Positions 3,503 to 64,000 of a stretch of 64,000 bases of DNA are shown piece after piece. The stretch comes from an uncultured Planctomycetia bacterium (GTDB lineage Bacteria; Omnitrophota; Gorgyraeia; Tantalellales; Tantalellaceae): NCBI GenBank assembly GCA_964421015.1, contig CAYQUS010000001.1, forward strand, positions 91,819-155,818, read 5' to 3'. The first letter of the stretch is position 1; the number at the start of each line of letters is the position of its first letter. Made by a program: the position numbers and the translations under genes. The notes below the pieces were generated by a model that saw nothing but the letters and a program-made list of their open reading frames with translations, did not search any database and had not been told where the DNA came from.

Positions 3503-4240
3503 TCACTCAAGAAGTTTTTCCCTTTCTATCTCCATCTCATCGAGAAAAGCCTGTATGTCCCTGTTGGCTTCCCATATCACCCTTATCCTGTCCATCTGTT
3601 TAAGAAAAGCTTTCACTACGGCAGGCGAAAAATGGGTTCCCGCTCTTTCCTTTACCATGCTTACGGCCGTATCGAAATCAAAGGCTTCCTTATAAGGCCT
3701 TCTTGATGTATAAGCGTCAAAACAGTCCGCCAGAGCTACTATACGGCCGTAAAGAGGGATATCTTCCCCCTTTAGCCCTCCTGGATACCCTGACCCGTCG
3801 TATTTTTCGTGGTGGCTCAGCGCTATGACCTGACACGCCCGCAGTAAAGGAGTTTTAGCGTGAGCGAAGATCCTGGCCCCCACTGAAGGGTGTTTTTTGA
3901 CCTCGGCCATTTCCTCTTCCGTAAGGGGCCCGTCTTTTTTCAATATAGAGTCAGAAAGCATTACCTTGCCTATATCGTGCATCGGACTGGCCATTCGGAT
4001 TATCTCCACTTCTTCCCTGCTCATCCCGAGAGCCTCCGCTATAAGAGCGCTGTAATCCGCTATGCGCACCAGATGAACACCGGTCGACCTGTCCCTCATT
4101 TCAGCTACAAGAGCAAGCTTAAAAACCATTTCCGCGTGAGAATCCCTAAGTTCAAGATAAGCTTTTTTCAGTTTAGCGTAAGCTTTCTCAACCCGTTCGG
4201 AAGACCTGTCCTTGTGCCCCGGAGTCATCATCTTGCCCAT
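3503..4240 (-). CDS. Standalone HD-GYP domain phosphodiesterase (putative c-di-GMP hydrolase)
   Basis: HD motif (MHDIGKV) and HHEKYDGSGYPGG signature of HD-GYP; 245 aa with no receiver domain. Confidence 0.85.
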   Translation of the reverse strand: MGKMMTPGHKDRSSERVEKAYAKLKKAYLELRDSHAEMVFKLALVAEMRDRSTGVHLVRIADYSALIAEALGMSREEVEIIRMASPMHDIGKVMLSDSILKKDGPLTEEEMAEVKKHPSVGARIFAHAKTPLLRACQVIALSHHEKYDGSGYPGGLKGEDIPLYGRIVALADCFDAYTSRRPYKEAFDFDTAVSMVKERAGTHFSPAVVKAFLKQMDRIRVIWEANRDIQAFLDEMEIEREKLLE

Positions 4241-6365: not shown

Positions 6366-6442
6366 TGGTAGCGGGGGACGGACTCGAACCGTCGACAACA
6401 CGGGTATGAGCCGTGTGCTCTAACCAGCTGAGCTACCCCGCC
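6366..6442 (-). tRNA. tRNA with CAU anticodon (Met; lysidine-modified Ile2 cannot be excluded)
   Basis: Minus-strand GGCGGGGTAGCTCAGCTGGTTAGAGCACACGGCTCATACCGTG..GGTTCGAGTCCGTCCCCCGCTACCA: cloverleaf with D-loop AGCTGGTTAGAGC, anticodon loop CTCATAC, T-loop GGTTCGAGTCC, encoded CCA. Confidence 0.85.
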
Positions 6443-49919: not shown

Positions 49920-49934
49920 ATAAGCCCCGGCGTA

Positions 49935-50351
49935 TTATTCCGTAGAAATATCAGCTATCAGAGTTTCCATTACAACCGGGCCTCCCGCCTTAACTCCGGA
50001 GGAAGCCCTGTAGACCGTGACCTTAACGTGCAATAGGTTAGCATAGCCGTCATAGTCCTCTTCTACCTCGGTAGTCCTGAAATAGTCCGTTACACCGTCT
50101 CCGTCATTGTCGACCTCTATATCCGTTTCGGGAGCCTCCTCAGGGATATCTCCGAAAACCATATTACGCAAGTCTTCCACCCGCTTAAGAGCCACAAGAG
50201 ACGTATTGTATATACCATCGGCTCCCACTCCAAGAACAGCACTTTGGGAAACAGCCGACAGGACGGCAAGGGTAACTATTGTGACAATTACCATGCCGGC
50301 TATGACCTCGACCAGAGTTATGCCTTTTTCATTCGTAGAAAAAGAAAACAA
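49935..50351 (-). CDS. Pseudopilin / minor pilin (prepilin-type N-terminal domain)
   Basis: NEKG|ITLVEVIAGMVIVTIVTLAVL prepilin motif; start proposed at TTG seven nt after a GGAGG RBS, giving a 9-aa leader (upstream in-frame ORF extension judged spurious). Confidence 0.5.
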   Translation of the reverse strand: MFSFSTNEKGITLVEVIAGMVIVTIVTLAVLSAVSQSAVLGVGADGIYNTSLVALKRVEDLRNMVFGDIPEEAPETDIEVDNDGDGVTDYFRTTEVEEDYDGYANLLHVKVTVYRASSGVKAGGPVVMETLIADISTE

Positions 50352-50557
50352 CACTACACCTCCGCGTTTTAAACCCCTAATATAAGTATACATTATATCC
50401 AGGCCGAAAACTATCATAGTCAGAGAAATAACGCGCAAGTAGCCTGAAAACCGACTTTTGACGAAAGTACACGCTTCTATGGCCATGAACCCGCTAAATT
50501 TGAATGCAAGAGAAGTGTTAATCCTAGAACTCTCTCCCGGGCATAACCGGGAAGAGC

Positions 50558-52105
50558 TCATTTCTCATCGATGATAACATCCTCTATGTGAAGAGATTTA
50601 TCGGATACGAGGTCGATCCGGCACCGATGTTTTTTCTGTATGTCTCCCAGCATCGCGGCCTGATCGGAAATAAGGGCGTCATGTATATCTGGATGCAGTA
50701 GAACGTTCACATGTTTTAGCTTTTTCGGGGATAAAGCGAACTTCTGGTCTATTCTTCGAACAGCCTCTATAGCTATGGTTTCCACGCTCTTTATCATGCC
50801 CTTCCCGGAACAATAGGGACACTCTACTCGTGAGGCGCTCTCAAGGCTCTTTCTCATCCTTTGGCGTGTCATCTCCACTACGCCGAACTGGCTTATTCCT
50901 CTGACGCTTATCCTGGCTTTATCGCGTTTCAGGGCATTTTCCAGCGTATGAGATATCTTGTCACGGTGTTCCTTTATCTCCATGTCTATGAAATCTATTA
51001 TGACTATGCCTCCGATGTCCCTCAGCATAAGCTGCTTTGGTATCTCCTCGGCGGCTTCCATGTTCGTACGAAAAGCTGTCTGCTCAAGCCCTTTTTTGCC
51101 GACAAAACTGCCTGTATTTACGTCTATTACTACCACTCCCTCGGTCTGTTCGATTATCAGGTAACCGCCGCTTTTAAGAGGCACCTTGCGCTCGAATATC
51201 CCGTCGATCTGTCTGTCCAGATCATATTTCTGGAAAAGAGGTGTTTTACCGTTGTAAAGTTTCACGTTATTACGTAAAGACGGCATGTAGGATTTAAGAA
51301 AACGCATGATACGGATATATTCTTCCCTGGAATCAACGAGAAACCTGCTGACGTCCTTTGAAAAAACATCTCTTATCATTCGCAGAACAAGTCCGTATTC
51401 CTCATAAACCGTAACCGGCGCTTTTTGCCGTGTTGACCTTTCTTTGATCGTCTTCCAAAGATTGACCAGGTACTTGTATTCGCTAAGCAGTTCCTCCTCC
51501 GAGCGCCCCTCGGCAACCGTTCTGACGATACATCCCGTTTCCTCCACGCCTCCTATCTTGGAGATTATGTCCCTTATGCGTTTTCGCTCATTCTTGTCGG
51601 TGATCCTGCGGGAAATGCCAAGACCTTTGTCATATGGGGTTAGAACAAGGTACCTGCCCGGAAGGCTGACAAATGTCGTAAGCCGCGGGCCTTTCGTACC
51701 CATTGCCTCCTTTACTACCTGGACCATCAGCTCTTCACCTATCTTCAGTATTTCCTTTATTTTTGGAAGCCCTCCATGCCGCACCTTTTTGACCTTGGGC
51801 TCGTCCTCGTCCGACAAAAGCTCCTTGAGAACAGAGTCCTTGTCTATAACGTCGCTCACGTGCAAGAATCCGTTCTTTTCCATGCCGATATCCACAAAAG
51901 CGGCGTCTATACCCTGCAGTATAGCGCTGACCCTACCTTTGTATATGCTGCCGGCGTAATGAACTTTGCTTTTCCTTTCCATGAAAAAATCCACAAGCTC
52001 TCCATTCTCAAGAACGGCCACCCGGGTCTCGATGGGGCTTGTGTCCACGAGCATTTCTTTCAGAACATGCTGCGCTTTTTTATCTTTCTGATGATGCTTT
52101 ATCAT
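50558..52105 (-). CDS. rng: Ribonuclease G / RNase E-family endoribonuclease
   Basis: S1 domain (AGSIYKGRVSAILQGIDAAFVDIG) then RNase E/G catalytic core; 515 aa without a scaffold region. Confidence 0.85.
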   Translation of the reverse strand: MIKHHQKDKKAQHVLKEMLVDTSPIETRVAVLENGELVDFFMERKSKVHYAGSIYKGRVSAILQGIDAAFVDIGMEKNGFLHVSDVIDKDSVLKELLSDEDEPKVKKVRHGGLPKIKEILKIGEELMVQVVKEAMGTKGPRLTTFVSLPGRYLVLTPYDKGLGISRRITDKNERKRIRDIISKIGGVEETGCIVRTVAEGRSEEELLSEYKYLVNLWKTIKERSTRQKAPVTVYEEYGLVLRMIRDVFSKDVSRFLVDSREEYIRIMRFLKSYMPSLRNNVKLYNGKTPLFQKYDLDRQIDGIFERKVPLKSGGYLIIEQTEGVVVIDVNTGSFVGKKGLEQTAFRTNMEAAEEIPKQLMLRDIGGIVIIDFIDMEIKEHRDKISHTLENALKRDKARISVRGISQFGVVEMTRQRMRKSLESASRVECPYCSGKGMIKSVETIAIEAVRRIDQKFALSPKKLKHVNVLLHPDIHDALISDQAAMLGDIQKKHRCRIDLVSDKSLHIEDVIIDEK

Positions 52106-52496: not shown

Positions 52497-54287
52497 CTAC
52501 TTTTTGTCCCTGAAATCCCAGAAAGACCTTTTCTTTTTCTCCTCGGCCGGAGCCTTGGAAACCGAGCCCACTATCTCCGTCTTTTCCTTTATACTGAGCT
52601 CTCCTTTCTTAACAAAAGGAAGAGAAGCCCCCGGCCCGTCCTTCATCTTGTCGCCGAACTTGTCACGTCCTTCCTTCTTGACATAAGCGTCGTAAGCGCC
52701 CTGAGACTGGGAGAATTCAACCGAATCTTTCCCGTCCCTCACTATGTGTACTGTCACAAAGAACACTATCTCTGTCCTGGTAATATCCTCAGCCTCGTAT
52801 TTAAAAATATGTCCTATGCCGGGTACATTGCCGAAAATGTCCCCCAATACCGGAACTTTATTATCCGTAGTCGTGGCATTCTTGCGTATAAGTCCCCCAA
52901 GAAAAATAGTTTCTCCGTCCTTTACCCTGACTATTGTGTTAGCCTCCCTGGAACTGTACGTAAGAGCTACGCTGCTGTCGGCTCCTCCTACCGGGATGAC
53001 GCTGAACTCAAGGTCTGAAGAAACCTCCGGAAGAAGATTTACGGATATCTCTCCTTCCTCGTTGACATGGGGGATAACAGCCAGTTTCACTCCTACTTCC
53101 CTGGCGTCACTTTCGCTTTCGAACTCGACAGTGACAAGAGTCGCGGTCTGCGTTGTCTCGACCGATTTCTGCAGCATTATCTTGTCTATGACCTTTATCG
53201 TGGCTTTCTGGTTATTGAGCGTAGTAATTCTTGGGCTCGATAGTATTTCCGTATCCCCTCTGTCGTTCAAAAGCTGCAAAGTAGCCGAGAATGTCGAGAA
53301 ATCAAGAGTTCCGAAACTGTACACGGAGTTGGCGGTCTGGGCCCCTGTCGGGCTCTGGAATATTGTGGCGTTCATCCGGGGGAACCTCTGGTTCTGATCA
53401 CTGCCCTCGGCCCCGTACTGGGGATAAAAATCCCGCTGGGTATCTCCCGGCATAAAAGGTAAAAGCCCGTCAGCGGTGAACGGGAAAGTTATTGGCCTTC
53501 TCGCGCCCGACGCTGTTATCACGGTGTTCCAGTCTATCCCGAACCTCTCATCCTTATCCAGAGTTATTTCCACGACCTTGGCGTCCAAAACTATCTGCGG
53601 AGGCTTCTGGTCTACCCCGGCGATCACCTTCTTTATCTCGCTCATTTTCGAAGGAATAGCCGTCACCACGAGGGAATTCACGCTGGGTATAAAGGTTACG
53701 CCCTCTCCTCTTTTCGTGTCCAAGAGATCGCCTATAGCCTTCATTAGCTGGGCAACGCTTATTTCCGTCTGGGAAACGCCAACCTCATCGCTTGAGTCGC
53801 TGGAACTCTTGGTAAGTTCAGTTTCCCTGGTGAGGTGACTCAGCTTTATGACCTCGGTAACTGTCTCCTCGGCAGCCAACTGCCCCCTGGGCATAACGCG
53901 TATTATGTGGTCTTCCCTGGAATAAACGTAACCGTAGTTTCTCGTAACTATGTCCAGAGCCGTTTCCCAAGGTTTGTCCCTAAGTCTCATGGTAACCTTC
54001 CCGGAAACCCCCGGAGCGGGAATTATATCAACCCCGCTAACTTCCGAAAGGTAGTGCAGGACGGTATTTATCTCGACATCCTTAAAATCCACGGTTATGC
54101 TCCCGGGAGAGGGCAGGACCACGGGCTTGGCCGGCTGAGAAACCGGCTGAGAAACCTGCGCCTGCGCTCCGGCAGTCTCACTGACCTGCGCAAAGGCATG
54201 AGTTCCGTCAAAAAGCGAAAAAACTAAAAAAAACGCCGTCAGGACACGAATTATCCCCTTCGATCCTATTTTAAACGCTCCGGACAT
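52497..54287 (-). CDS. pilQ: Type IV pilus secretin PilQ
   Basis: Signal peptide; N-domains; C-terminal secretin domain (VPVLGDIFGNVPGIGHIF..TEIVFFVT). Confidence 0.85.
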   Translation of the reverse strand: MSGAFKIGSKGIIRVLTAFFLVFSLFDGTHAFAQVSETAGAQAQVSQPVSQPAKPVVLPSPGSITVDFKDVEINTVLHYLSEVSGVDIIPAPGVSGKVTMRLRDKPWETALDIVTRNYGYVYSREDHIIRVMPRGQLAAEETVTEVIKLSHLTRETELTKSSSDSSDEVGVSQTEISVAQLMKAIGDLLDTKRGEGVTFIPSVNSLVVTAIPSKMSEIKKVIAGVDQKPPQIVLDAKVVEITLDKDERFGIDWNTVITASGARRPITFPFTADGLLPFMPGDTQRDFYPQYGAEGSDQNQRFPRMNATIFQSPTGAQTANSVYSFGTLDFSTFSATLQLLNDRGDTEILSSPRITTLNNQKATIKVIDKIMLQKSVETTQTATLVTVEFESESDAREVGVKLAVIPHVNEEGEISVNLLPEVSSDLEFSVIPVGGADSSVALTYSSREANTIVRVKDGETIFLGGLIRKNATTTDNKVPVLGDIFGNVPGIGHIFKYEAEDITRTEIVFFVTVHIVRDGKDSVEFSQSQGAYDAYVKKEGRDKFGDKMKDGPGASLPFVKKGELSIKEKTEIVGSVSKAPAEEKKKRSFWDFRDKK

Positions 54288-54311
54288 GATCCCTCCTCAT
54301 ATATCATTGAT

Positions 54312-54695
54312 TCACTGCTGAACCTTGTGTTCATACAGCAATATCTCATGAACAGCCCCGTCAATGGATATCACGGCTTTGTTGTCCCCTACCTCAACAA
54401 GTTCAACAAGCCCCACCGTCTGGCCTTCCTCTAAAATTTCCCCGTTGAGCACTATAGCCTTCTTTCCCTCAGACCCCGTTGCTATACCCTGAAACTTGGC
54501 GTCCACTATCGTGAATATTCCGGCTATACCGCTTCTGGATTTTACCGTGTCGACCCCGACAAGGGGAACAAAGGGGTCTCTCCTTAAACTCTTCTCCGGC
54601 TCCGTTTCATCTTCGCCGTAGAAAACTCCGGCATAAAAAAACACCCCTAGAAAAAGCATAACCGCCAGGATCTTTGAAAAAGCGTTATTTGGCAT
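54312..54695 (-). CDS. pilP: PilP-like pilus assembly protein
   Basis: Small protein with N-terminal TM/signal (AFSKILAVMLFLGVFFYAG) and beta-rich C-terminus, located between pilO and pilQ; start trimmed to MPNN. Confidence 0.5.
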   Translation of the reverse strand: MPNNAFSKILAVMLFLGVFFYAGVFYGEDETEPEKSLRRDPFVPLVGVDTVKSRSGIAGIFTIVDAKFQGIATGSEGKKAIVLNGEILEEGQTVGLVELVEVGDNKAVISIDGAVHEILLYEHKVQQ

Positions 54696-55296
54696 CTTTT
54701 CCGCCTTTTTGCGAAATGTATATCTTAAGAACAATGTGCGCGTCATGCCGTGTAGGAGATTTGGGATCGTACTGCAACCTTATGTCACGTACAGAGGGAA
54801 AACCCTTGCCTTTTTCCAGCTCGCCTATAAAATGCCTCATCTGGTGATATCCGCCCTTGGCCGATATGACCACCATCATACTCGGGTAAAGATCAGCCGA
54901 CTTGTCAACTGCCGCCTGGACCCCCATCGGGGTAACGCTTATTATCCTTACGTTCGAGTCCTTGGCCACGACTGCCAGAGAATCCAGAAAGGCGGCTATT
55001 TCCTTGGTTCCAGGCACCTGGCTCGCGTAAGAGGAAAACTCTTCCCTGAGGGATTCCAGTTTTTTTTCAAGCTTGCCCGTGTTTTCCAGATCTTTCCTTG
55101 CCATATCGATTTTCTTGGAAATTTTAAGAGAATTCTTCGATACGTTTCCCAGATTCTTTACCGTCGGCACCACAAGAAAAAAACCGTAGAGAGCCGCGAA
55201 AACCGCCGCCGCTGAAACAGCCGCATAAGCCCTTTTCTTCTCATCCTGAAGAAAATCCCTTATCTCATCTGCAATTTTCTCTAATTTCGGGTCCAT
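54685..55296 (-). CDS. pilO: PilO-like pilus assembly protein
   Basis: Single TM (AVSAAAVFAALYGFFLVV) followed by coiled coil and PilO-type periplasmic domain; position after pilN; start trimmed to MDPK. Confidence 0.6.
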   Translation of the reverse strand: MDPKLEKIADEIRDFLQDEKKRAYAAVSAAAVFAALYGFFLVVPTVKNLGNVSKNSLKISKKIDMARKDLENTGKLEKKLESLREEFSSYASQVPGTKEIAAFLDSLAVVAKDSNVRIISVTPMGVQAAVDKSADLYPSMMVVISAKGGYHQMRHFIGELEKGKGFPSVRDIRLQYDPKSPTRHDAHIVLKIYISQKGGKDAK

Positions 55297-55313
55297 CCGC
55301 GATTTCCCGCTCC

Positions 55314-55982
55314 TTACTTTCTTCTTTTTCTTTTCGAACCCGCTTTTTTGGCGGACTCTGCCCTTCTCGGAAATTCGCATTTCAGACGAAAAAGCATTGT
55401 CGCTTCGTCATCAACGGCTTTGGAACTCATGTCTATAAGCTCTATCTCTCTGAAATACCCCGAGAAATCCTTGTTCGCCTTAAGCGAGTTTATGAACCTG
55501 GCCACGCCGGACGTAGCCACCTCGCTGTTCCCCAGAAAATGTCCGGTGAGGACCAGCCTGGTGGGATACTGTTCCGTGTCTTTATAGTTGAAGGTTTTTC
55601 CCGAAGACTCAAGCGCGAGCCTCGACAGCCATACTCCAGGGATAACCGCCTCATCAAGCCCGCCGAGAAGACGGTACCATTTTACCTCGGTACCCGATAT
55701 CTTTTTGACGAACTTTATGGCCTTTTCCATTTCGGCTATTTCGGATGACAGAGCGTCATATTTTTCTTTCAGTGGTTTAATATCCTCCCATTCGCCCTCG
55801 AGCCGTCCGGCATGGTTTCCCTTAAGAAGCACCGCCACCCCCAAAAACGCGTGAACAATAAGAACAAGAGCCGAAATCCCGATAGCTATCGGGATAAGCG
55901 GAAGCACTATGGGGCCGGAGCTTTTCGCCCGTTTTTTTACCCTGAACTCTTTAGGCAGAAGGTTTATTTCTATCATTTTCAT
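55314..55982 (-). CDS. pilN: PilN pilus assembly protein
   Basis: MKMIEINLLPKE conserved PilN N-terminus, TM, coiled coil. Confidence 0.7.
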   Translation of the reverse strand: MKMIEINLLPKEFRVKKRAKSSGPIVLPLIPIAIGISALVLIVHAFLGVAVLLKGNHAGRLEGEWEDIKPLKEKYDALSSEIAEMEKAIKFVKKISGTEVKWYRLLGGLDEAVIPGVWLSRLALESSGKTFNYKDTEQYPTRLVLTGHFLGNSEVATSGVARFINSLKANKDFSGYFREIELIDMSSKAVDDEATMLFRLKCEFPRRAESAKKAGSKRKRRK

Positions 55983-55996
55983 GGTTTCAAGCTCGG

Positions 55997-57016
55997 CTAT
56001 CCTCTTTTGGCCAGACCTACGCTTACCGCGAGCCGCGAAGAGACAAGATCAACGTCCTTTCTCGATAAAACATCAGAAGTTTTCATCCCGAAAAGGGGGT
56101 CCCACTTTTCCACGCTGGTTCCCATTTTTTCCGAGAGGAACTCAATAACTCCTCCCGCGTACACCAGACCTCCCGAACAGAAAATACCTTCTATTGACCT
56201 GTTGCATGTCCCCTCAAAATACCCGAAAGAAAGCTGAACCTCTCTGACTATATCGTTAAGGACCTTACGGACGCAATTCTCCACCGTCTCTTTGTCGAAC
56301 TCGCCTATACCTCGCTTATACTCGTCCGCCTGGGCATGAGACACAGAGAGGTTCCTGGCTATCAGAGAGTCTATATCCCCTCCTCCGATCTGTATCTGCC
56401 TCATAAAATAAGGGGCTTCGTCCACTGATATAAGCAGCGACGTAACGGAATGCCCCATGTCCACAAGAGCGAAAACGTTTTTGTTAGACGCCGCTTTGGA
56501 GGTAACAAAGGCGTTGAATAACGCGAAGGCGTTCACATCTATGAAATTTATTCTTATGCCCATATCCATCAAAAGCTTGACCCTTTCTTCCACGAAAGCT
56601 CTTTTCGCGGCCGTGAGAAGAACTTTCATCTGCCCCTGCTCGGGCGCGTCTCCCAGAATAACGCTGTCAAGGATAACTTCCTTGACACTGAAAGGGATAT
56701 ATTTTTCAGCCTCGAAAACAAGAGCCGCCTCAAGCTGCTCTTTTGTCATTTTAGGCAGAGTTATGAACCTGACTATTACCTCAGGTCCGCCGACGGAAAG
56801 ATTGACGTTACGGGGACGTATGTCTATCTCTGCGAGAGCCGCCTTAAGTTCGGCGGCAAGATCGGGTTTTTCAGCGTTCTTGGAGAAATCCCTGACATTG
56901 TAAGCTTCCAGCAGGGGCTCTTCAGTAGAGCCGCTTAGAACGGCCACTTTTATTGAATGCGAGCCTATGTCTATCCCGACGGTCGCGTCGTCCCTGCCGG
57001 ACCCCAGCTTTGCCAT
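55997..57016 (-). CDS. pilM: Type IV pilus assembly ATPase-like protein PilM (actin fold)
   Basis: VGIDIGSHSIKVAVL..; 339 aa actin/FtsA-like; pilMNOPQ order. Confidence 0.85.
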   Translation of the reverse strand: MAKLGSGRDDATVGIDIGSHSIKVAVLSGSTEEPLLEAYNVRDFSKNAEKPDLAAELKAALAEIDIRPRNVNLSVGGPEVIVRFITLPKMTKEQLEAALVFEAEKYIPFSVKEVILDSVILGDAPEQGQMKVLLTAAKRAFVEERVKLLMDMGIRINFIDVNAFALFNAFVTSKAASNKNVFALVDMGHSVTSLLISVDEAPYFMRQIQIGGGDIDSLIARNLSVSHAQADEYKRGIGEFDKETVENCVRKVLNDIVREVQLSFGYFEGTCNRSIEGIFCSGGLVYAGGVIEFLSEKMGTSVEKWDPLFGMKTSDVLSRKDVDLVSSRLAVSVGLAKRG

Positions 57017-57200: not shown

Positions 57201-57611
57201 TTATCCAGCAGGTACTTCCTCTTCCTCTTCTTCCTCTTCCTCAGCAGCGGTAGTCGGCAAAGTGTGCTCAGGGTAATCAGCAACCCTGGGACATGCTGGC
57301 GGATCCGCAACTGTCGCCACCGTATAGCCTGTCTGGTCAGTATCCAGCGGGCAATAAGGCGTGGTCTTTATGTAATCACCCACAAGATCAGCCATAGTTA
57401 CCGCGTCCGTACTACCCATTCCCTCATCAAGAGCCCAGAGAGTTATGGCGCCGTCTATCTGCTTCAGGTTGGCTATACACGCGTTCTTCTGAGCGGTTTC
57501 ACGGGCCCGCATAAAGTTCGGTATCGCTATCGCGGCTAAAAGACCTATAATTGCGACCACTATCATTATTTCAACCAGCGTGAACCCACCCTTTTTAGTC
57601 AGCATCTTCAT
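57201..57611 (-). CDS. Type IV pilin (PilA-like) with C-terminal poly-Glu tail
   Basis: MKMLTKKGG|FTLVEIMIVVAIIGLLAAIAIPNF classic type IVa pilin N-terminus (start taken at ATG 7 nt after AGGAGGT); two Cys pairs; C-terminal E10. Confidence 0.8.
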   Translation of the reverse strand: MKMLTKKGGFTLVEIMIVVAIIGLLAAIAIPNFMRARETAQKNACIANLKQIDGAITLWALDEGMGSTDAVTMADLVGDYIKTTPYCPLDTDQTGYTVATVADPPACPRVADYPEHTLPTTAAEEEEEEEEEVPAG

Positions 57612-57671
57612 ACATATCACCTCCTTTCAAAGAACAAAATTGAAGGCCAAAGCCCTCTTTTCTTCTAACTA

Positions 57672-57712: not shown

Positions 57713-58105
57713 TTATTCCTGTTCGGGGTTCGGTTGGGTATTGTCGGGAGGTAATACGTGTCCCGGGTATTCGCTGGCTTTCGGACAAACAGGCGAAGCT
57801 GATACAACGGTGACTACGTATCCTTCTTTTTCGCTGTCCAAGGGGCAATATGGCGTCGTTTTTATATAGTCGCCCACAAGATCTTCCATCGTAACCGCGT
57901 CGTCGCTCCCTTTTCCCCCGTCGAGAGCCCACAAAGAGATAGCCTCGTCTATCTCTTTAAGATTAGCCACGCAGGATTTTCTCTGTGCAGTTTCACGAAC
58001 CCTCATATAGCCAGGTATGGCTATAACCGCCAGAAGGCTTATTATCGCTATCACGATCATTATCTCAACCAGAGTAAATCCCGGTGATGTTTTTTTTATA
58101 TCCAT
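57713..58105 (-). CDS. Type IV pilin (PilA-like), paralog of the downstream pilin
   Basis: MDIKKTSPG|FTLVEIMIVIAIISLLAVIAIPGY; shares ANLKxID.AI.LWALD..GDYIKTTPYCPLD core with the neighbouring pilin. Confidence 0.8.
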   Translation of the reverse strand: MDIKKTSPGFTLVEIMIVIAIISLLAVIAIPGYMRVRETAQRKSCVANLKEIDEAISLWALDGGKGSDDAVTMEDLVGDYIKTTPYCPLDSEKEGYVVTVVSASPVCPKASEYPGHVLPPDNTQPNPEQE

Positions 58106-58156: not shown

Positions 58157-59377
58157 CTAGAAATTAATTATCTCTGAGATCTTGAAAATTGGCAGGAACA
58201 TGCATATCACTATGCCGCCTATCACTATCCCGAGAAAAGCTATGATAAGCGGTTCAAGAAGGCTTGTAAGAGAATCTACCATAACATCCACCTGTTCGTC
58301 GAAAAAGTCGGCTATCTTAGTAAGCATCTTTTCGAGCTCTCCCGTCTTTTCACCCACAGATATCATCCTGGTCACAAGGGGCGGGAAAATACCGCTTCGC
58401 TCCATGGGTTCGGATATGCTTTCCCCTTCTTTGACGTTGTCTCTGACCTTTGTTATCGTGTTTTCTACCACGACGTTTCCGGCCGTCTTCGAGACTATCT
58501 CAAGAGCCTGAAGTATTGGCACGCCGCTTTTAACCAGAGTGCTGAGAGTCCTTGAAAATTTGCTTATGGCCACTTTTTTCTGCAACGGCCCGAAAACCGG
58601 AAGCTTAAGCTTCAGCTCGTCAAGCTTCCATTTGCCTTTTTCCGTGGAGATGTACCATTTTACGACCGAAGAAAATATAATTACAAACACCACGAATACC
58701 GCGAAATACTTCCGGGCGTAATCGCTGAGATCTATCAGGAACTGTGTGGGCCCCGGAAGAGCCGCCCCGAACCCTGAAAATATGTCCTTAAAAACCGGTA
58801 TGACCTTCAGTATCATGAGCGCCGATATCCCCACCGCCATTCCGGTGACGGCCGTAGGATACACCATTGCGGACTTTATCTTCCTTTGCAGATTATTGGT
58901 CTTTTCAAGGTATGTCGCCACCCTTTCAAGAACATCATCAAGCATACCTCCTGACTCTCCCGCCTTTACCATGTTTATGAAAAAATCGGAAAATATGGCC
59001 CTGTGCTTTTCCATGGCCTCGGAAAGGCTGGAACCTGTATTAACACTGTCCCTGGCGTCAATTATCGCTTTTTTGAAAGCCGGGCTCTGGGCCTGTTCGG
59101 AAAGCGTGTCTAGCGATGTAACTATCGTTATACCCGCGGCGGTCAGGGTCGCCATCTGCCGCGTAAAGATCACAAGCTCATCGAGAGAGACCTTCTCCTT
59201 GCCCCCTAACTTGAATGAGGAAAGAGAAAACGAACTCTGCTTCGCCTCCTCGAGCTTCAGAACGAGAAGGTCCCTGTTCCTCAGCATGTCAAGAGCTCTG
59301 GACCTTTCCGGAGCCTCTATCTCACCTTTAATGCTTTTCCCCGTCCTGTCCTTTGCCGAGTAATTGAATTTTCCCAT
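58157..59377 (-). CDS. pilC: Type IV pilus platform protein PilC (GspF family)
   Basis: 406 aa, two T2SSF repeats, three TM segments. Confidence 0.9.
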   Translation of the reverse strand: MGKFNYSAKDRTGKSIKGEIEAPERSRALDMLRNRDLLVLKLEEAKQSSFSLSSFKLGGKEKVSLDELVIFTRQMATLTAAGITIVTSLDTLSEQAQSPAFKKAIIDARDSVNTGSSLSEAMEKHRAIFSDFFINMVKAGESGGMLDDVLERVATYLEKTNNLQRKIKSAMVYPTAVTGMAVGISALMILKVIPVFKDIFSGFGAALPGPTQFLIDLSDYARKYFAVFVVFVIIFSSVVKWYISTEKGKWKLDELKLKLPVFGPLQKKVAISKFSRTLSTLVKSGVPILQALEIVSKTAGNVVVENTITKVRDNVKEGESISEPMERSGIFPPLVTRMISVGEKTGELEKMLTKIADFFDEQVDVMVDSLTSLLEPLIIAFLGIVIGGIVICMFLPIFKISEIINF

Positions 59378-59396: not shown

Positions 59397-61103
59397 CTAA
59401 GTTGCCCTGTACACTTCCTCCAGCGATGTCCATCCGGTTATGAACTTTATCATGGCGTTGTCTCTCAGGTTACGGACACCCTTTTTCTGAAGGTAAGAAC
59501 GTATATCCAGTTCCGAACGCTGTTTGGTAACCATATCGCGGATCTCGTCGTCGACAAGCAGAGTTTCAAGAACGGCAAGCCTTCCCCTGTATCCGGTTCC
59601 GGAACAGTGCGCGCATCCTCTTCCTCTGTAGAACTTAGTAACATCGCGCGCCTCCGGATACTCGCTGCGTATTTTTTCAAGAAGCGGGCCCGGTATGTCG
59701 AATTCCTCTTTACAGTTGGGACATATCCTCTTAAGAAGCCTCTGAGCGCAGGCCATCACGAGGCTCGAGGACACAAGGAACGGCTCCACTCCCATGTTAA
59801 CAAGACGCGTTATGGCCCCCACGGAGTCGTTTGTGTGCAGTGTGCTTAATACCATCTGTCCGGTAAGAGAAGCTTTTATCGCTATATCGGCTGTCTCAAA
59901 ATCGCGTATCTCTCCTACCATTATAACGTCGGGAGACTGCCGCAATATGGCCCTGAGGCCGTTTGCGAAATCAAGCCCTATCTCAGGCTTGGCGGCTATC
60001 TGTGTTATCCCCGCTACCTGATACTCCACCGGGTCTTCCACGGTAACTATGTTCCTGGCCGGAACGTTCATTTCGTTAAGTACAGAGTAAAGCGTGGTTG
60101 ATTTACCGCTCCCGGTGGGCCCGGTGACAAGTATTATCCCGAAAGGCCTGGATAATGCGGTCTTAAAATCCTCGAGCGGTCCCGGGAGAAACCCCAGGGA
60201 ATCCAGCCCCACGGAAAGATTCGTGCGATCCAGAGCCCTCAGAACCATTTTATTCCCGTATATGAGAGGAAGCGCCGATACCCTGAAATCTATGTCCCTT
60301 GAACTTACCCTCACCCTGAACCTTCCGTCCTGAGGAACACGGTTCTCGGTAATATCCATGTTCGACATTATTTTAAGGCGCGTAAGAACGGCATTCTGAT
60401 TTTTCTTGGGAAGATTGAAAGCCTCCTGCAGCTCCCCGTCTATTCTGTACCTTATCCTAAGGCTTTTCTCCTGTGGTTCTATATGAATATCGCTGGAACG
60501 CTTCTTTATGGCTTCGTTGATGATAACCGATACCATCTTGACTATGGGAGCCATGCCGCTTTCTTTTTCCATTTCGGACGCGCTGTCCCCGCCAACCTTC
60601 ATAACTATTTCCAGATCCGATTCCTCGGCGTTCTCCTCGATAAGCCCTGTTATTTCCCTTTCCTCGCTGTCGTAAAGCGACCTTACCACCTGCTCGATAT
60701 CTCTTCTTGTAGACAAAAGCAGGTCGATATTGCATCCCGTAACGGTCTTTATATCGTCTATGGCCATAACATCCGTTGGGTCATAGACAACGAGCGTAAG
60801 GTTCTTGCCTATACGGGCTATCGGTATGACCATATGTTTTCTTACAAGTTTCTCCGGGACAGATTTTACCACCTTGTCGTCGAGAACAACTCTCGAGATA
60901 TCTATAGGGGGGATACCAAGCTCCTTCGAAAGGACTTTAAGAAGATCCGCCTGTGATACTATCCCGCTCTCCGAAAGCGATTTAACGCTCAGGTTCTCGC
61001 CTTTTCTCGAGACCCGTTCAACAAAATCGTTGAGTTTCTTTTCGTCAACGACCCCGCTTTTTTTAAGAGCGCCGAATATTCTGTCTTTTATTGAGCCTAC
61101 CAT
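59397..61103 (-). CDS. pilB: Type IV pilus assembly ATPase PilB/GspE family (copy 1)
   Basis: GspE_N-like N-terminus, Walker A GPTGSGKSTTLY, tetracysteine zinc motif CPNC..CAHC, His box; 568 aa. Confidence 0.9.
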   Translation of the reverse strand: MVGSIKDRIFGALKKSGVVDEKKLNDFVERVSRKGENLSVKSLSESGIVSQADLLKVLSKELGIPPIDISRVVLDDKVVKSVPEKLVRKHMVIPIARIGKNLTLVVYDPTDVMAIDDIKTVTGCNIDLLLSTRRDIEQVVRSLYDSEEREITGLIEENAEESDLEIVMKVGGDSASEMEKESGMAPIVKMVSVIINEAIKKRSSDIHIEPQEKSLRIRYRIDGELQEAFNLPKKNQNAVLTRLKIMSNMDITENRVPQDGRFRVRVSSRDIDFRVSALPLIYGNKMVLRALDRTNLSVGLDSLGFLPGPLEDFKTALSRPFGIILVTGPTGSGKSTTLYSVLNEMNVPARNIVTVEDPVEYQVAGITQIAAKPEIGLDFANGLRAILRQSPDVIMVGEIRDFETADIAIKASLTGQMVLSTLHTNDSVGAITRLVNMGVEPFLVSSSLVMACAQRLLKRICPNCKEEFDIPGPLLEKIRSEYPEARDVTKFYRGRGCAHCSGTGYRGRLAVLETLLVDDEIRDMVTKQRSELDIRSYLQKKGVRNLRDNAMIKFITGWTSLEEVYRAT

Positions 61104-61107
61104 AACA

Positions 61108-62838
61108 TCACTTGTTCTCCATGGGACGGTTCTCGACCGTAACCCTCAGGACTTCCTCAAGAGACGTAGTTCCTCCGATGACATTCTGTATGCCGTTCTC
61201 TCTGAGAGTGGTCATTCCTTCTTCCCTGGCGGCCATCTCTATCTCAAACTCCTGTCCTCCCCTGAAAATTATGTCTTTTATCTTGGGAGAAAGCACCAGG
61301 CACTCCACTATGGCGATCCTGCCCTTATACCCGGAATTGAGGCACCTCTTACATCCCACCGGGGAGTATATTTCGGGTATATTCCCGTTTTCATCCACTA
61401 TCCCGTATTTTCTGGCCAGTTCTTCCGGAGGAGTATAAGGCTTGCGGCAATCCGTACAAAGTTTCCTTATAAGCCTCTGGGCGGCTATCAGTTCCACCGA
61501 TGAGGTTATTAGAAAGTGTTCCACTCCCATATTTACCATTCTCACTATGGCGCCCGCCGCCGTATTAGTGTGAAGAGTGCTTAAGACCAGATGTCCCGTA
61601 AGAGCCGATTTTATGGCAATGTCCAGAGTCTCATGGTCCCTTATCTCTCCCACCATTATTACGTCCGGGTCCTGTCTTAAGATAGACCTAAGGCACGCTG
61701 CGAATGTCAGCCCGATCTCTTCGTTTATGCTTACCTGGTTGACCCCCCAGAACTCGTATTCTACGGGATCCTCTACCGTAACCAGATTTTTCCCGGGAGC
61801 GTCCACATGTTTCAGTATCGAATACAGGGTGGTTGTCTTTCCGCATCCTGTGGGACCGCACACGAGTATCATCCCGTGAGGTTTCCTGCTCACTTCCCTT
61901 ATCGTATCGATATCTTTCTTCTTAAGTCCCAGCATATCAAGGTCTGTCATGGCCTGCTGTTTGTCGAGAACCCTGAGAGCCACTTTCTCTCCGAAACTCG
62001 AAGGCACGACCGACACCCTGAAATCAACTTTCCGGCCTTCTATCTTGACCTGGAAACGCCCGTCCTGGGGAAGCCGCCGCTCTGTTATGTCAAGATCGGC
62101 AAGCACCTTTATCTTGGAAACAAGCGCCTGGTGGAATTTTCTGGGAGGGTTGTAACTTTCCGTCAGGACCCCGTCCACCCTGTACCTTATGCGGGTGCGG
62201 TCTTCCATCGGTTCTATGAGGATGTCTCCGGCCCGGTCTTTTATCGCCCTGGAAAGTATCATGTTCGTAAGCTTGACCACAGGAGCTTCCTCTGTTATTT
62301 TCAGAAGTTCCGCCGTGGAAACGCTGTCCTCCCCTTCCGACACGGTTTCTATCTGCGCATCCTCTATTTCCTCGACTATCTTGCTTATCTCTTCATCGGC
62401 TGATTTCTCATAATACTTCTGTACGGCCTCAGTAATATCCTCTTCGGAAGCTATTACGGGGCTGAGTTCAAGATTGGTCATTACCTTAAGATCATCGAGA
62501 GCCATTACGTTAAGAGGGTCGGACATGGCCACAGTAAGCATTTTCCCTACCCTTGATATAGGGAGAACCTTGTACATGAAGGCTACTTTTCTGGGAATGA
62601 GCCCGAGTGTCTCCTCATCCACCCTGAAATAAGACAACTTTATGGGGGGGAACCCCAGGCCTTCGCTGAGAGTTGAAAGAAGATCCTGTTTCGAAACAAC
62701 GTTCATACCCACAAGAACGTCGCTGAGGCTTCCGCCTTTTTCGAGGCATATTCCTCTGGCTTTCTCGAGGGCTTCCGCCGTAACCAGCCCTTTTTTTATC
62801 AGCAGACTGGATATCTTTTCAGTAATGGGAAGGGCCAT
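61108..62838 (-). CDS. PilB/GspE-family secretion ATPase (copy 2, tandem paralog)
   Basis: 576 aa, Walker A GPTGCGKTTTLY, zinc motif CTDC..CKRC, GspE_N-like N-domain. Confidence 0.85.
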   Translation of the reverse strand: MALPITEKISSLLIKKGLVTAEALEKARGICLEKGGSLSDVLVGMNVVSKQDLLSTLSEGLGFPPIKLSYFRVDEETLGLIPRKVAFMYKVLPISRVGKMLTVAMSDPLNVMALDDLKVMTNLELSPVIASEEDITEAVQKYYEKSADEEISKIVEEIEDAQIETVSEGEDSVSTAELLKITEEAPVVKLTNMILSRAIKDRAGDILIEPMEDRTRIRYRVDGVLTESYNPPRKFHQALVSKIKVLADLDITERRLPQDGRFQVKIEGRKVDFRVSVVPSSFGEKVALRVLDKQQAMTDLDMLGLKKKDIDTIREVSRKPHGMILVCGPTGCGKTTTLYSILKHVDAPGKNLVTVEDPVEYEFWGVNQVSINEEIGLTFAACLRSILRQDPDVIMVGEIRDHETLDIAIKSALTGHLVLSTLHTNTAAGAIVRMVNMGVEHFLITSSVELIAAQRLIRKLCTDCRKPYTPPEELARKYGIVDENGNIPEIYSPVGCKRCLNSGYKGRIAIVECLVLSPKIKDIIFRGGQEFEIEMAAREEGMTTLRENGIQNVIGGTTSLEEVLRVTVENRPMENK

Positions 62839-62854: not shown

Positions 62855-63304
62855 TTACCTCTTTTTATAAAGTTTGTTAAGCGCTCCGGATATACCAGTG
62901 ACCGTGCCTATAAAAACCTGCACCTTTTTCTTTGTAAGTGTCTCCACGTCCTCTATGGCCTTGTCGTTGAGCGGATTGGACATGGCTATGGTAAGGATAT
63001 CTCCCATCACGTCTATGGGCACCACTCCGTACTGCCTTGCCATATTCTCGGGTATGACTTTTGTCATCTCCTGGTTGAGCTCATAATTCTCCACGGGAAT
63101 GTAGGGAAACCCGTACTGGGTCGTAAGCGCCTGAACTATATCTATCTCTCCCACAAAACCCAGTTTTATGAGTATTTCACCTATGAGCCCGCCTTCACCC
63201 TTCTGGAACTCAAGGGCCTTCTGAAGCTGCTGCTCAGATATAAGTCCGGAGGATTTAAGTATCTCTCCGAGTTTTTTTCTTTTTTCGTTTTCCGGTAAAA
63301 CCAC
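62855..63304 (-). CDS. Standalone MshEN/GspE-N-terminal-like domain protein, putative c-di-GMP receptor
   Basis: 149 aa; two tandem 24-residue motifs KLGEILKSSGLISEQQLQKALEFQ and LIGEILIKLGFVGEIDIVQALTTQ matching the RLGxxLLxxGLIxxxxLxxxLxxQ c-di-GMP-binding pattern of MshEN domains. Confidence 0.65.
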   Translation of the reverse strand: MVLPENEKRKKLGEILKSSGLISEQQLQKALEFQKGEGGLIGEILIKLGFVGEIDIVQALTTQYGFPYIPVENYELNQEMTKVIPENMARQYGVVPIDVMGDILTIAMSNPLNDKAIEDVETLTKKKVQVFIGTVTGISGALNKLYKKR

Positions 63305-63331: not shown

Positions 63332-64000
63332 CTATCCCAGCATCTTAAGGAGCTCTTCCACGTCATTCGCCCTTCCGATAGCCTCTTCCCTGGAAATAGC
63401 CCCGGACGAGACAAGTTCTACCAGGGACTGGTTCATGGTCACCATCCCGAATTTCTGGGAAGTCTGTATTATCGAATATATCTGATGTTCCTTGGCGTCG
63501 CGTATGGAGCTTCTGACTGCCGGTGTCGCTATCAGCACTTCAGCCGCAAGAGCCCTTCCGGGACGGTCCTTCCTGGGAATAAGCTGCTGCGATATTATGC
63601 CCACAAGAGCGAAAGAAAGCTGAGCCCTTATCTGTTTCTGCTGGTGGGCCGGAAAAACATCCACCACTCGGTTTATTGTCTGGGTACTGTCGGAAGTATG
63701 GAGCGTCCCGAACACAAGATGCCCCGTATCCGCTATTATCATGGCCTGTTCTATCGAGTCAAGGTCCCTCATCTCACCTATCAGTATTACATCAGGATCC
63801 TGCCTGAGTACGTGACGCAGGGCATTCGAGAAAGAACGCGTATCCTCTATTACCTGTCTCTGGTCTATTACCGCTTTTTTGTTCTTATGCACGAATTCTA
63901 TCGGATCCTCCACTGTAACTATGTGGCAATTCCTGGTATTGTTTATCTCGTCTATCATGGCCGCGAGGGTCGTGGACTTACCGCTTCCCGTAGCCCCCGT
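63332..64000 (-). CDS. pilT: Twitching motility ATPase PilT (C-terminal about 220 aa; gene continues beyond window end)
   Basis: ..GATGSGKSTTLAAMIDEINNTRNCHIVTVEDPIEFVH..GEMRD..HLVFGTLHT PilT-specific motifs. Confidence 0.9.
   Translation of the reverse strand, partial: TGATGSGKSTTLAAMIDEINNTRNCHIVTVEDPIEFVHKNKKAVIDQRQVIEDTRSFSNALRHVLRQDPDVILIGEMRDLDSIEQAMIIADTGHLVFGTLHTSDSTQTINRVVDVFPAHQQKQIRAQLSFALVGIISQQLIPRKDRPGRALAAEVLIATPAVRSSIRDAKEHQIYSIIQTSQKFGMVTMNQSLVELVSSGAISREEAIGRANDVEELLKMLG

Follow-up and report, generated by a model that had tools for sequence, protein, structure and literature searches.

A standalone MshEN protein as a candidate c-di-GMP receptor subunit of the type IVa pilus motor in Omnitrophota

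MshEN domains in pilus motors

Of the c-di-GMP receptor families, only three have been described as widespread, and MshEN is among them (PMC12448109). Work on it has dealt almost exclusively with the domain at the N-terminus of secretion and pilus ATPases, where it acts in cis. In V. cholerae MshE (PDB 5HTL; Wang et al. 2016, PMC5013675) the substitution G11L abolishes c-di-GMP binding and G40I weakens it 72-fold. The GSPII-B domain of Thermus thermophilus PilF (PDB 8PDK; PMC11731258) binds c-di-GMP with a KD of 6 nM through an arginine-free site in which K167 and L196 open the two motifs (KLGE / L(L/I)G). Changing either residue to Arg weakens binding, and the published extended consensus, (R/K/L)LG..., derives from this domain (PMC11731258). 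GSPII-B adjoins the homologous GSPII-A, in which binding has been lost; all the domains of PilF belong to one polypeptide. Other arrangements include Clostridium thermocellum Cthe_1107, a (MshEN)2-T2SSE ATPase (supplementary table 4, PMC5013675), and Pseudomonas aeruginosa PA3740, an MshEN - xT2SSE_N1 protein which has been tested as a c-di-GMP binder and is linked to swarming motility (PMC5013675). Regulation in trans is described for the FimX–PilZ–PilB system of Xanthomonas and Pseudomonas (PDB 7LKO), in which FimX, a separate c-di-GMP-binding protein, acts on PilB (PMC8389850, PMC5595344). The N-domain of this PilB is MshEN-like. It is not known to bind c-di-GMP. The receptor in the FimX system combines a degenerate EAL domain with a PilZ adaptor, folds unrelated to MshEN, and is not known to have its gene between those of PilT and PilB.

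Type IVa pili occur almost throughout the uncultured phylum Omnitrophota, where they are thought to mediate attachment to host or prey (PMC10066038). In the DNA analysed here, a 64-kb Omnitrophota stretch referred to as the window, a pilus operon encodes a free-standing MshEN protein. It has the 24+5+24 residue site of MshE, with the Leu, Gly and Gln contacts aligned without gaps, and both proteins occur in a type IV pilus context. Unlike MshE, it is unfused to a T2SSE ATPase, has Lys and Leu for the two arginines and has Asn in place of D108. With PilF it shares the arginine-free K.../L... site and the association of one intact MshEN with an ATPase containing degenerate copies, although the intact domain is here a separate gene product. 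PilF motif II is also one residue shorter, and its affinity-boosting D266–R268 pair corresponds to N110–L112. What would act in trans here, by contrast with the FimX system, is a paralogue of the N-domain that the ATPase itself carries. PA3740 likewise lacks an ATPase domain, but it is proteobacterial and its C-terminal subdomain is highly diverged, whilst that of the Omnitrophota protein is canonical; judged from sequence, the latter is a different standalone lineage. A plain single-domain MshEN architecture is absent from supplementary table 4 of PMC5013675, PA3740 being the nearest entry, and literature searches turned up no account of a standalone MshEN from pilus operons or from Omnitrophota.

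The standalone protein and its predicted ligand site

The gene and its parts are as follows.

62855..63304, minus strand: standalone MshEN protein, 149 aa, GTG start
63203..63274, minus strand: c-di-GMP motif I, aa 11-34, KLGEILKSSGLISEQQLQKALEFQ, aligning to MshE R9-Q32
63188..63202, minus strand: 5-residue spacer KGEGG, aa 35-39, between motifs I and II
63116..63187, minus strand: c-di-GMP motif II, aa 40-63, LIGEILIKLGFVGEIDIVQALTTQ, aligning to MshE R38-Q61
62861..63115, minus strand: MshEN_C / T2SSE_N1 alpha-beta subdomain, aa 64-148, from Pfam PF05157 and alignment to PilF

An AGGAG Shine-Dalgarno sequence can be read 7 nt 5' of the GTG start, and translation of 63116-63274 on the minus strand gives exactly KLGEILKSSGLISEQQLQKALEFQ-KGEGG-LIGEILIKLGFVGEIDIVQALTTQ, a layout of 24+5+24 residues, 53 in all. 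The NCBIfam model NF053729 ('c-di-GMP_motif'; 53 positions, cut-off 38 bits) matches aa 11-63 from end to end (model positions 1-53/53; 61.0 bits, E=6.9e-17), and Pfam PF05157 (MshEN) matches aa 64-148 (E=1.4e-17). By these profile scores the match to MshEN is one of homology, not chance. A profile search of the 149 aa found no T2SSE ATPase domain (Walker A/B, Asp box, His box), and TIGR02538 is matched only at model positions 1-138 of 564, with 73 bits against a cut-off of 676. A PilB/MshE/GspE-type ATPase identity was rejected on account of the short length and the missing T2SSE match. Several homologues are labelled 'PilB' by JGI.

The AF2 model (pLDDT 91.3) places helices at residues 12-18, 24-37, 41-47 and 53-64, followed by an alpha/beta part, and together with Foldseek it reveals the two-subdomain MshEN fold, an N-terminal four-helix bundle joined to an alpha/beta T2SSE_N1 subdomain at the C-terminus. 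In the PDB the predicted fold is closest to 5HTL, the complex of MshE with c-di-GMP, on which it superimposes (TM 0.82-0.87; rmsd 2.0 A over 139 residues); the PilF GSPII domains come next. Further fold matches are GspE-GspL (4PHT/2BH1) and PilB-PilZ (7LKO). The Pfam, NCBIfam and AF2 results together bear out the original prediction that the protein encoded between pilT and two PilB-like ATPases consists of an MshEN-like domain alone: the whole of it is one complete MshEN domain and nothing else. A patch of Lys residues at aa 125-127 is conserved.

Residues 9-61 of MshE align without gaps to aa 11-63 of the standalone protein. In motif I, L12, G13, G20, L27, L31 and Q34 fall at MshE L10, G11, G18, L25, L29 and Q32, and in motif II, I41, G42, G49, I56, L60 and Q63 fall at L39, G40, G47, L54, L58 and Q61. 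Both motifs accordingly have Gly at position 3 (G13, G42) and Gln at position 24 (Q34, Q63), and the two hydrophobic triads of MshE (L10/L54/L58 and L25/L29/L39) become L12/I56/L60 and L27/L31/I41, with conservative Ile for Leu at two positions. The only ligand-contact mismatch to MshE in this alignment is the first residue of each motif, which is K11 in motif I and L40 in motif II where MshE has Arg in both. The proposal that both motifs fit RLGxxLLxxGLIxxxxLxxxLxxQ stands for the Leu, Gly and Gln positions and needs refinement at the arginines. The motifs are not strictly canonical, since position 1 is K or L and not R; K11 and L40 depart from the Arg-first consensus (RLG...) but fit the extended one, and they equal K167 and L196 of PilF GSPII-B. 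The Asp which touches the guanine from the C-terminal subdomain (MshE D108, PilF D266) is replaced by Asn110, and this counts against a reading in terms of ligand binding.

The pilus operon and its tandem ATPases

The neighbouring genes in the window are listed below.

63332..64000, minus strand: 3' part of pilT, which continues beyond the window; TIGR01420
61108..62838, minus strand: PilB1, 576 aa, MshEN+T2SSE ATPase by profile matches
59397..61103, minus strand: PilB2, 568 aa, MshEN+T2SSE ATPase by profile matches
58157..59377, minus strand: PilC platform protein (T2SSF x2), profile match
57713..58105, minus strand: pilin (N_methyl motif), profile match
57201..57620, minus strand: second pilin (N_methyl motif) with a nine-Glu C-terminal run, profile match
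52497..57016, minus strand: pilM-pilQ block as a whole
55997-57016, minus strand: pilM
55314-55982, minus strand: pilN-like
54685-55380, minus strand: pilO
54312-54746, minus strand: pilP-like
52497-54287, minus strand: pilQ secretin

A full-length copy of pilT from the same organism, on the near-identical contig L006, encodes 353 aa and scores 457 bits with TIGR01420 (cut-off 319). More than 300 homologues of the standalone protein, of about 149 aa, were found, and 529 candidate stretches were confirmed in a scan of genomes. Gene order is the same in all 80 of the genome loci inspected, nearly all of them labelled Omnitrophota. The gene sits between pilT and pilB in most genomes, and the order GGDEF-like gene, pilT, MshEN is conserved. 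In a Velamenicoccus-type subclade pilT is missing at this position and the GGDEF-like gene directly precedes MshEN, whose adjacency to PilB1 persists. Median identity across loci is 57% for the standalone protein, 55% for PilB1, 54% for PilB2, 58% for PilC and 61% for PilT; the standalone MshEN diverges as slowly as the core motor proteins and is under purifying selection. Over a range of 35-100% identity the Gly and Gln positions are near-invariant: in MshE numbering, G11, G40 and Q61 are retained in 79/79 standalone proteins and Q32 in 78/79, and at least 98% of the family keeps the hydrophobic-triad and Gln positions. Gln is the first residue of motif I in 49/79 members, which is outside both published consensus patterns.

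The two ATPases present a different picture at the same positions. PilB1 has an intact Walker A, Asp box, Walker B and His box. In its N-domain, motif I shows the changes G->S, L->R and Q->C, and motif II shows G->S, G->N and Q->G. PilB2, 43% identical to PilB1, has G->F and Q->V in motif I and G->S and Q->E in motif II. The statement that the neighbouring N-domains match the motif only partially is correct for this genome, because PilB1 scores 28.5 bits with NF053729, below the cut-off, and PilB2 has no match to the model. Across genomes the G11 position is retained in 0/79 PilB1 and 1/58 PilB2 N-domains, G40 in 5/79 and 22/58, and Q61 in 1/79 and 17/58, while the hydrophobic core positions are kept in 71-79 of 79 inspected genomes. 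NF053729 itself fails as a cross-genome discriminator: at E<=1e-9, an estimate of where the 38-bit cut-off falls, it matches 79/79 standalone proteins, 65/79 PilB1 and 27/58 PilB2 N-domains. Only position-level analysis separates the groups. Many PilB N-domains still match the profile, and so it is the Gly and Gln positions alone that carry the predicted loss of binding; the N-domains of PilB1 and PilB2 are predicted to have lost the c-di-GMP-binding positions and kept the hydrophobic core.

In 76/77 loci the standalone gene adjoins PilB1; the median gap is 15 nt, and in several of these loci the stop and start codons overlap. Fused and split variants, both from metagenomic lineages, were also encountered. 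P0146 (locus L092) is a single 765-aa protein, in which a standalone-like MshEN (40% identity, Gly and Gln intact) is joined by a linker to a PilB1-like part (49% identity) whose own N-domain is degenerate. It has the domain order MshEN - MshEN - ATPase, fused as in Cthe_1107, where the window has the split form, and genes for PilB2 and PilC lie downstream. In locus L093 the standalone MshEN overlaps a 395-aa ATPase devoid of an N-domain. These forms suggest that the standalone domain is connected to the downstream ATPase and does not act against it.

A further gene in the window may bear on c-di-GMP turnover.

3503..4240, minus strand: standalone HD-GYP domain protein, 245 aa, Pfam HD_5, 2e-32

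As first noted, this gene encodes an HD-GYP protein on its own; it contains HDIGK and HHEKYDGSGYP, has no receiver domain and offers the potential for c-di-GMP turnover. It lies 59 kb from the pilus operon. A conserved GGDEF-domain gene adjoins the operon just outside the window, its product membrane-bound and HAMP-GGDEF-like. In this organism its A-site reads GALEF, the GG(D/E)EF signature being lost, and immediately upstream of it RxxD is missing. This sequence makes a local cyclase doubtful, as does the Arg which stands at PleD N335 even in orthologues with an intact GGDEF; these also have Glu at D344. The gene is absent in locus L089, reduced to a GAF-only protein in L090, and evolves much faster than the motor genes (median identity 29%). 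It is unsupported as a dedicated local cyclase in this organism and is retained as a conserved neighbour; given its degenerate active site, no local source of c-di-GMP is evident. Pattern searches of the ORFs in the 64-kb window found neither an active GG(D/E)EF motif nor a convincing EAL-domain signature, and the only RNA element is one tRNA, with no c-di-GMP riboswitch. The HD-GYP gene and the conserved GGDEF-family neighbour point to c-di-GMP signalling in this lineage.

A proposed detached receptor and the alternatives

We consider it probable, though well short of certain, that in Omnitrophota the standalone MshEN serves the type IVa pilus motor as a detached receptor subunit for c-di-GMP, working with PilB1 and PilB2. 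The detached-sensor interpretation is supported by the residue mapping, the fold, the conservation of the family, the loss of the Gly and Gln contacts in both PilBs and the fused and split variants. Both neighbouring ATPases have lost key binding residues, and therefore the motor's sensor seems to be a separate subunit across the phylum. We infer that the protein binds c-di-GMP, its partner being presumably PilB1 or PilB2 and its effect, by analogy with MshE and PilF, the activation of pilus extension. The four-helix bundle (aa 11-63) would bind one c-di-GMP by the MshE mechanism: the two Leu triads would stack on the guanines, the backbone amides of G13/E14 and G42/E43 would read the Hoogsteen edges, and Q34 and Q63 would hold the ribose-phosphate, with K11 and L40 as caps over the bases, like those of the nanomolar PilF GSPII-B site. 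The T2SSE_N1-like subdomain would attach the protein to the motor; the likeliest docking partner is PilB1, whose gene follows immediately downstream, with PilB2 or the PilM/PilC platform as less likely ones. Both extension ATPases, predicted to be without binding sites of their own, would so come under second-messenger control in trans, and the MshEN and PilB1 pair would be a functionally split version of a multi-MshEN ATPase such as PilF.

The same ligand could be read with a different sign and target. As a decoy or brake, free MshEN would compete with the PilB1 and PilB2 N-domains for a docking site on the platform (PilM/PilC), inhibiting extension or deciding which of PilB1, PilB2 and PilT is engaged, with c-di-GMP switching its affinity. 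Consistent with this, its T2SSE_N1-type subdomain is complete, highly conserved and folded like the N-domains of the PilBs; the pilT-MshEN-pilB placement in most genomes and the structures of related T2SSE_N1 domains solved with partner proteins (GspE-GspL, PilB-PilZ) fit as well. The variants P0146 and L093 suggest, however, that the domain works with the downstream ATPase, and the subclade without pilT here keeps the MshEN-PilB1 adjacency; we regard competition as unlikely. A structural accessory without nucleotide sensing, serving the assembly or docking of the tandem ATPases, is a slightly poorer candidate again. Its motif residues would contribute to bundle stability or protein contact, a view encouraged by the want of an evident local cyclase, the neighbouring GGDEF domain being degenerate, and by the drift of motif I position 1 to Gln in much of the family. 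Yet PilB1 and PilB2 maintain the fold without G11, G40, Q32 and Q61, the very residues which the standalone family holds nearly invariant, and the site equals an experimentally verified nanomolar binder residue for residue.

That the sensor acts elsewhere than on PilB, either on PilT in retraction or on the upstream membrane-bound HAMP-GGDEF-like protein, seems to us improbable. The conserved gene order and the GGDEF-like gene directly 5' of MshEN in the Velamenicoccus-type subclade speak for such a partner; against it, the GGDEF-like gene is missing or truncated in L089 and L090 and evolves rapidly, and pilT is absent from this position in other loci, whereas PilB1 is an almost constant follower. 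There is practically no likelihood that the ORF is an artefact, a chance reading frame or a frameshifted fragment of a broken PilB. The start of a PilB gene 16 nt downstream and the JGI name 'PilB' might raise the idea, but PilB1 has a complete N-domain of its own, the standalone ORF has its own ribosome-binding site and lies in a different frame, and the length of about 149 aa is strongly conserved in more than 100 clusters and 79 genomes, with the identical protein on 3 independent contigs. A broken-PilB or pseudogene origin was rejected on these grounds, and recent duplication of a neighbouring N-domain on the low identity to those of PilB1 (32%) and PilB2 (30%).

A bolder extension of the receptor-subunit reading is that c-di-GMP sensing has moved from two tandem extension ATPases to one detachable subunit of very high affinity, acting as a clutch or selector among PilB1, PilB2 and PilT; we offer this as a speculation with a low probability of being right. 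If true, type IV pili would here be controlled in a way new to the literature, and this in an organelle by which ultra-small predatory or parasitic bacteria attach. A free MshEN subunit occurs in every Omnitrophota genome inspected, alongside decayed cis domains in the same operon, and it constitutes a natural experiment in signal transmission because the signal would have to cross between polypeptides. As a soluble protein of 149 aa which is predicted to bind c-di-GMP tightly, it may provide an easy biochemical entry into pilus regulation in Omnitrophota. For the orthologue from Ca. Velamenicoccus archaeovorus LiM, WP_128700008.1, which alone among the members here comes from a complete named genome, the current annotation goes no further than hypothetical or 'protein containing General secretory system II'.

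Gene, family and neighbourhood of the standalone MshEN protein

As originally predicted, an open reading frame for a 149-aa protein consisting of an MshEN domain only lies between pilT and the genes for two PilB-like ATPases. It sits within a densely packed minus-strand pilus operon, and inspection of the sequence places an AGGAG ribosome-binding site 7 nt upstream of it.

Genes of the pilus operon within the window
63332 to past the window end (-): pilT
62855-63304 (-): standalone MshEN, 149 aa, GTG start (ORF calling)
61108-62838 (-): PilB1
59397-61103 (-): PilB2
following PilB2 (-): PilC, two pilins, PilM, PilN-like, PilO, PilP-like, PilQ secretin

A metagenomic contig, L006, shows 6 mismatches to the window over 11,146 bases, indicating the same organism. 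Beyond the window end it supplies the remainder of pilT, preceded by a gene for a 470-aa HAMP-GGDEF-domain protein.

MshEN is the sole Pfam family found in the 149-aa protein (aa 64-148, E=1.4e-17). In an NCBIfam profile search NF053729, which models the MshE c-di-GMP motif over 53 positions and has a curated cut-off of 38 bits, aligns over its full length with aa 11-63, scoring 61.0 bits. The AlphaFold2 model (mean pLDDT 91.3, from an alignment of 62 homologues) is closest among solved structures to c-di-GMP-bound V. cholerae MshE (5HTL; TM 0.82-0.87, rmsd 2.0 Å over 139 residues), followed by the Thermus PilF GSPII domains, the X. citri PilB N-domain and the XpsE N-domain. Since Pfam, NF053729 and the predicted fold all agree, the protein is a single complete MshEN domain, a four-helix bundle and a T2SSE_N1 subdomain, with no other part.

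A word-indexed search returned 306 homologues, nearly all of 145-150 aa and 55-100% identity, the named ones being from Candidatus Omnitrophota MAGs. Scanning one genome per GTDB species matched at least 599 stretches, with 529 confirmed relatives, and the best 80 of the 529 were inspected. These are mostly labelled Omnitrophota, together with about a dozen 'Planctomycetia' or 'Planctomycetales' MAGs and one 'Deltaproteobacteria', and include Ca. Tantalella, Ca. Makaraimicrobium and the complete genome of Ca. Velamenicoccus archaeovorus LiM, whose orthologue bears no annotation beyond hypothetical or 'protein containing General secretory system II'. Representatives at 50% identity, searched exhaustively, include many further short MshEN-only proteins, as well as multi-MshEN proteins.

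All 80 inspected loci share the synteny whatever the taxon label, as do two remote short representatives (43% and 35% identity). The near-invariant order is (mreCD-PBP2-rodA)-radical SAM, HAMP-GGDEF-like, pilT, MshEN, PilB1, PilB2, PilC, with no pilT before MshEN in the Velamenicoccus-type subclade. Of 77 loci, 76 have MshEN next to PilB1; the gap has a median of 15 nt, and in several loci the stop and start codons overlap. Median identity to the window copy is 57% for standalone MshEN, 55% for PilB1, 54% for PilB2, 58% for PilC and 61% for PilT; the standalone protein thus diverges at a rate equal to that of the core motor proteins. The corresponding figure for the GGDEF-like protein is 29%. 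In loci L001, L002, L004, L006, L089 and L090, mreC-mreD-PBP2-rodA and a radical-SAM gene with a Radical_SAM_N2 domain lie upstream of the pilus operon on the same strand.

The predicted c-di-GMP site and its counterparts in PilB1 and PilB2

Translation of 63116-63274 (-) gives 53 residues, KLGEILKSSGLISEQQLQKALEFQ-KGEGG-LIGEILIKLGFVGEIDIVQALTTQ. The claim that these hold two tandem motifs of the RLG type stands for the key Leu, Gly and Gln positions, which superimpose on those of MshE in the gapless alignment proposed as its check, but not for the first position of each motif, where K and L are found instead of R and R. These are the sole departures.

Equivalent residues, standalone protein and MshE
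K11, L12, G13: R9, L10, G11
G20: G18
L27, L31, Q34: L25, L29, Q32
L40, I41, G42: R38, L39, G40
G49: G47
I56, L60, Q63: L54, L58, Q61

In the MshE structure, Leu triads stack on the guanines, whose Hoogsteen edge is read by the backbone amides of Gly and of the residue after it, and the ribose-phosphate is held by Gln residues; binding is lost in the G11L mutant and 72-fold weaker in G40I (PMC5013675). [quoted passage not shown] In PilF GSPII-B, replacement of the first-position residue by Arg in either motif lowers binding; the consensus was subsequently widened to (R/K/L)LG..., and a hydrophobic first residue was proposed to predict very high affinity (PMC11731258). Motif I opens with Lys in the window protein; in 49 of 79 family members it opens with Gln, which the published consensus patterns do not include. 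Asn110 takes the position of the guanine-contacting Asp of the C-subdomain (MshE D108, PilF D266), a residue whose mutation in PilF (D266A) costs only ~4.5-fold in affinity (PMC11731258). An N-terminal basic patch (K8, R9, K10, K11) resembles MshE K5/R7/K8/R9. A further Lys-rich patch at aa 125-127 (T-K-K-K-V-Q-V-F, window 62920-62934 (-); K-C-K in remoter members) stands where PilB N-domains have a 'TG' motif. More than 80% of close relatives retain it, and it may form a contact surface particular to the standalone family.

PilB1 and PilB2 are 43% identical, and both have intact Walker A, Asp box, Walker B and His box. The tandem pair (window 59397-62838 (-)) is conserved across inspected genomes; both members carry a tetracysteine motif and score slightly under the NCBIfam equivalog cut-offs for PilB and GspE. 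Because their N-domains are only 32% (PilB1) and 30% (PilB2) identical to the standalone protein, the latter did not arise by recent copying of one of them. The expectation that these N-domains match the motif only partially was borne out: the core is kept and the contact positions are largely lost.

Retention of contact residues (MshE numbering)
G11: standalone 79/79, PilB1 0/79, PilB2 1/58
G40: standalone 79/79, PilB1 5/79, PilB2 22/58
Q32: standalone 78/79, PilB1 53/79, PilB2 33/58
Q61: standalone 79/79, PilB1 1/79, PilB2 17/58

As an internal control, hydrophobic core positions of the bundle are conserved in 71-79 of 79 PilB1 sequences. The fold can therefore do without the Gly and Gln positions, and their near-invariance in the standalone family argues for selection on ligand binding. 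For the PilB N-domains, loss of c-di-GMP binding is predicted, with precedents in XpsE (PMC5013675) and PilF GSPII-A (PMC11731258). This prediction rests on the contact residues, since outside the window genome 65 of 79 PilB1 and 27 of 58 PilB2 N-domains still reach NF053729 at E<=1e-9 and the profile fails to separate the groups.

Proposed partner and role

Two rearranged relatives bear on the partner. P0146, a natural fusion of 765 aa from a JGI metagenome (L092:7001-9298), joins a standalone-like MshEN (40% identity, Gly and Gln retained) through a low-complexity linker to a PilB1-like part, 49% identical over 563 residues and carrying a degenerate N-domain of its own (RVI..., SLL...G); next to it come PilB2-like and PilC genes. 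A natural split is seen at L093:2622-4257, where a 156-aa MshEN gene overlaps that of a 395-aa T2SSE ATPase without any N-domain, with genes for a complete PilB and for PilC coming next. Rosetta-stone relations of this kind make the downstream ATPase the likely partner, and suggest that MshEN and PilB1 are a split form of an (MshEN)2-ATPase. That architecture has been listed for Clostridia, and versions with three and four MshEN copies for Deinococcus-Thermus and Nitrospiraceae (PMC5013675). Set against this pairing, it is improbable that the partner is instead PilT or the GGDEF-like protein, despite the place of both genes in the conserved order.

On balance we favour the standalone protein as the subunit through which this pilus motor would sense c-di-GMP. 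A single c-di-GMP would be bound in the MshE mode, of K/L type, the C-subdomain would associate with PilB1 and possibly PilB2 or the platform, and promotion of extension would be the likely effect by analogy with MshE and PilF. Competition with the PilB N-domains for the platform would make it a decoy or selector; this seems unlikely, though it is the foremost of the alternatives. A purely structural subunit, to be set beside the near-invariant Gly and Gln positions, is slightly less probable still. An artefact, given the same gene in all 80 loci, is refuted and has virtually no probability.

The MshEN domain, its ligand chemistry and the control of PilB-type ATPases by c-di-GMP (MshE, PilF) are already established. 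FimX is described as a trans-acting c-di-GMP receptor for PilB (PMC8389850, PMC5595344), and PA3740 provides a precedent for a c-di-GMP-binding MshEN protein without an ATPase (PMC5013675). What appears to be new is a canonical free-standing MshEN between pilT and pilB, in every inspected genome, beside two tandem PilB paralogues with apparently decayed sites. Full-text literature searches gave no description of such a protein, and neither the MshEN paper with its table of architectures (PMC5013675) nor the Omnitrophota genomics paper (PMC10066038) contains one. The latter reports T4aP as near-universal in the phylum and makes no mention of PilB, c-di-GMP or GGDEF. The logic will not surprise a specialist; the case is clean, conserved in the inspected genomes and easily testable.

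Genes with a possible role in c-di-GMP turnover, and other genes in and near the window

The predicted standalone HD-GYP gene was recovered, 59 kb from the standalone MshEN gene.

HD-GYP gene and its surroundings
2653-3267 (-): M50-family peptidase, flanking the HD-GYP gene
3503-4240 (-): standalone HD-GYP domain protein (HD_5 2e-32; HDIGK and HHEKYDGSGYP motifs)
4256-5203 and 5200-6267 (-): two SPFH/Band-7 genes, flanking the HD-GYP gene
6369-6442 (-): tRNA gene near the cluster

The HAMP/GAF-like/GGDEF membrane protein of 470 aa (L006:6184-7596) is encoded just beyond window position 64000, and nearly all inspected Omnitrophota loci have its gene ahead of pilT-MshEN. With GALEF as its A-site in the window organism, it is not a credible cyclase there. 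Orthologues vary at this site, from canonical GGDEF by way of SGDEF and AGDEF to forms that can no longer be recognised, and even in one that keeps GGDEF, Arg replaces PleD N335 and Glu replaces D344; the gene is therefore treated as a conserved neighbour. It is missing in L089, with only the GAF part left in L090, and may represent an ancestral cyclase turned signalling scaffold. An RNA element search found no riboswitch in the 64-kb window.

Downstream of pilQ and an RNase E/G gene, window 47346-50561 (-) holds an 857-aa ORF without a Pfam match and a pilin-like ORF whose N-methylation motif lies at aa 77-101, so that its true start probably lies downstream of the listed one. The second pilin of the operon (57201-57620 (-)) ends in an unbroken run of nine glutamates, ...TTAAEEEEEEEEEVPAG.
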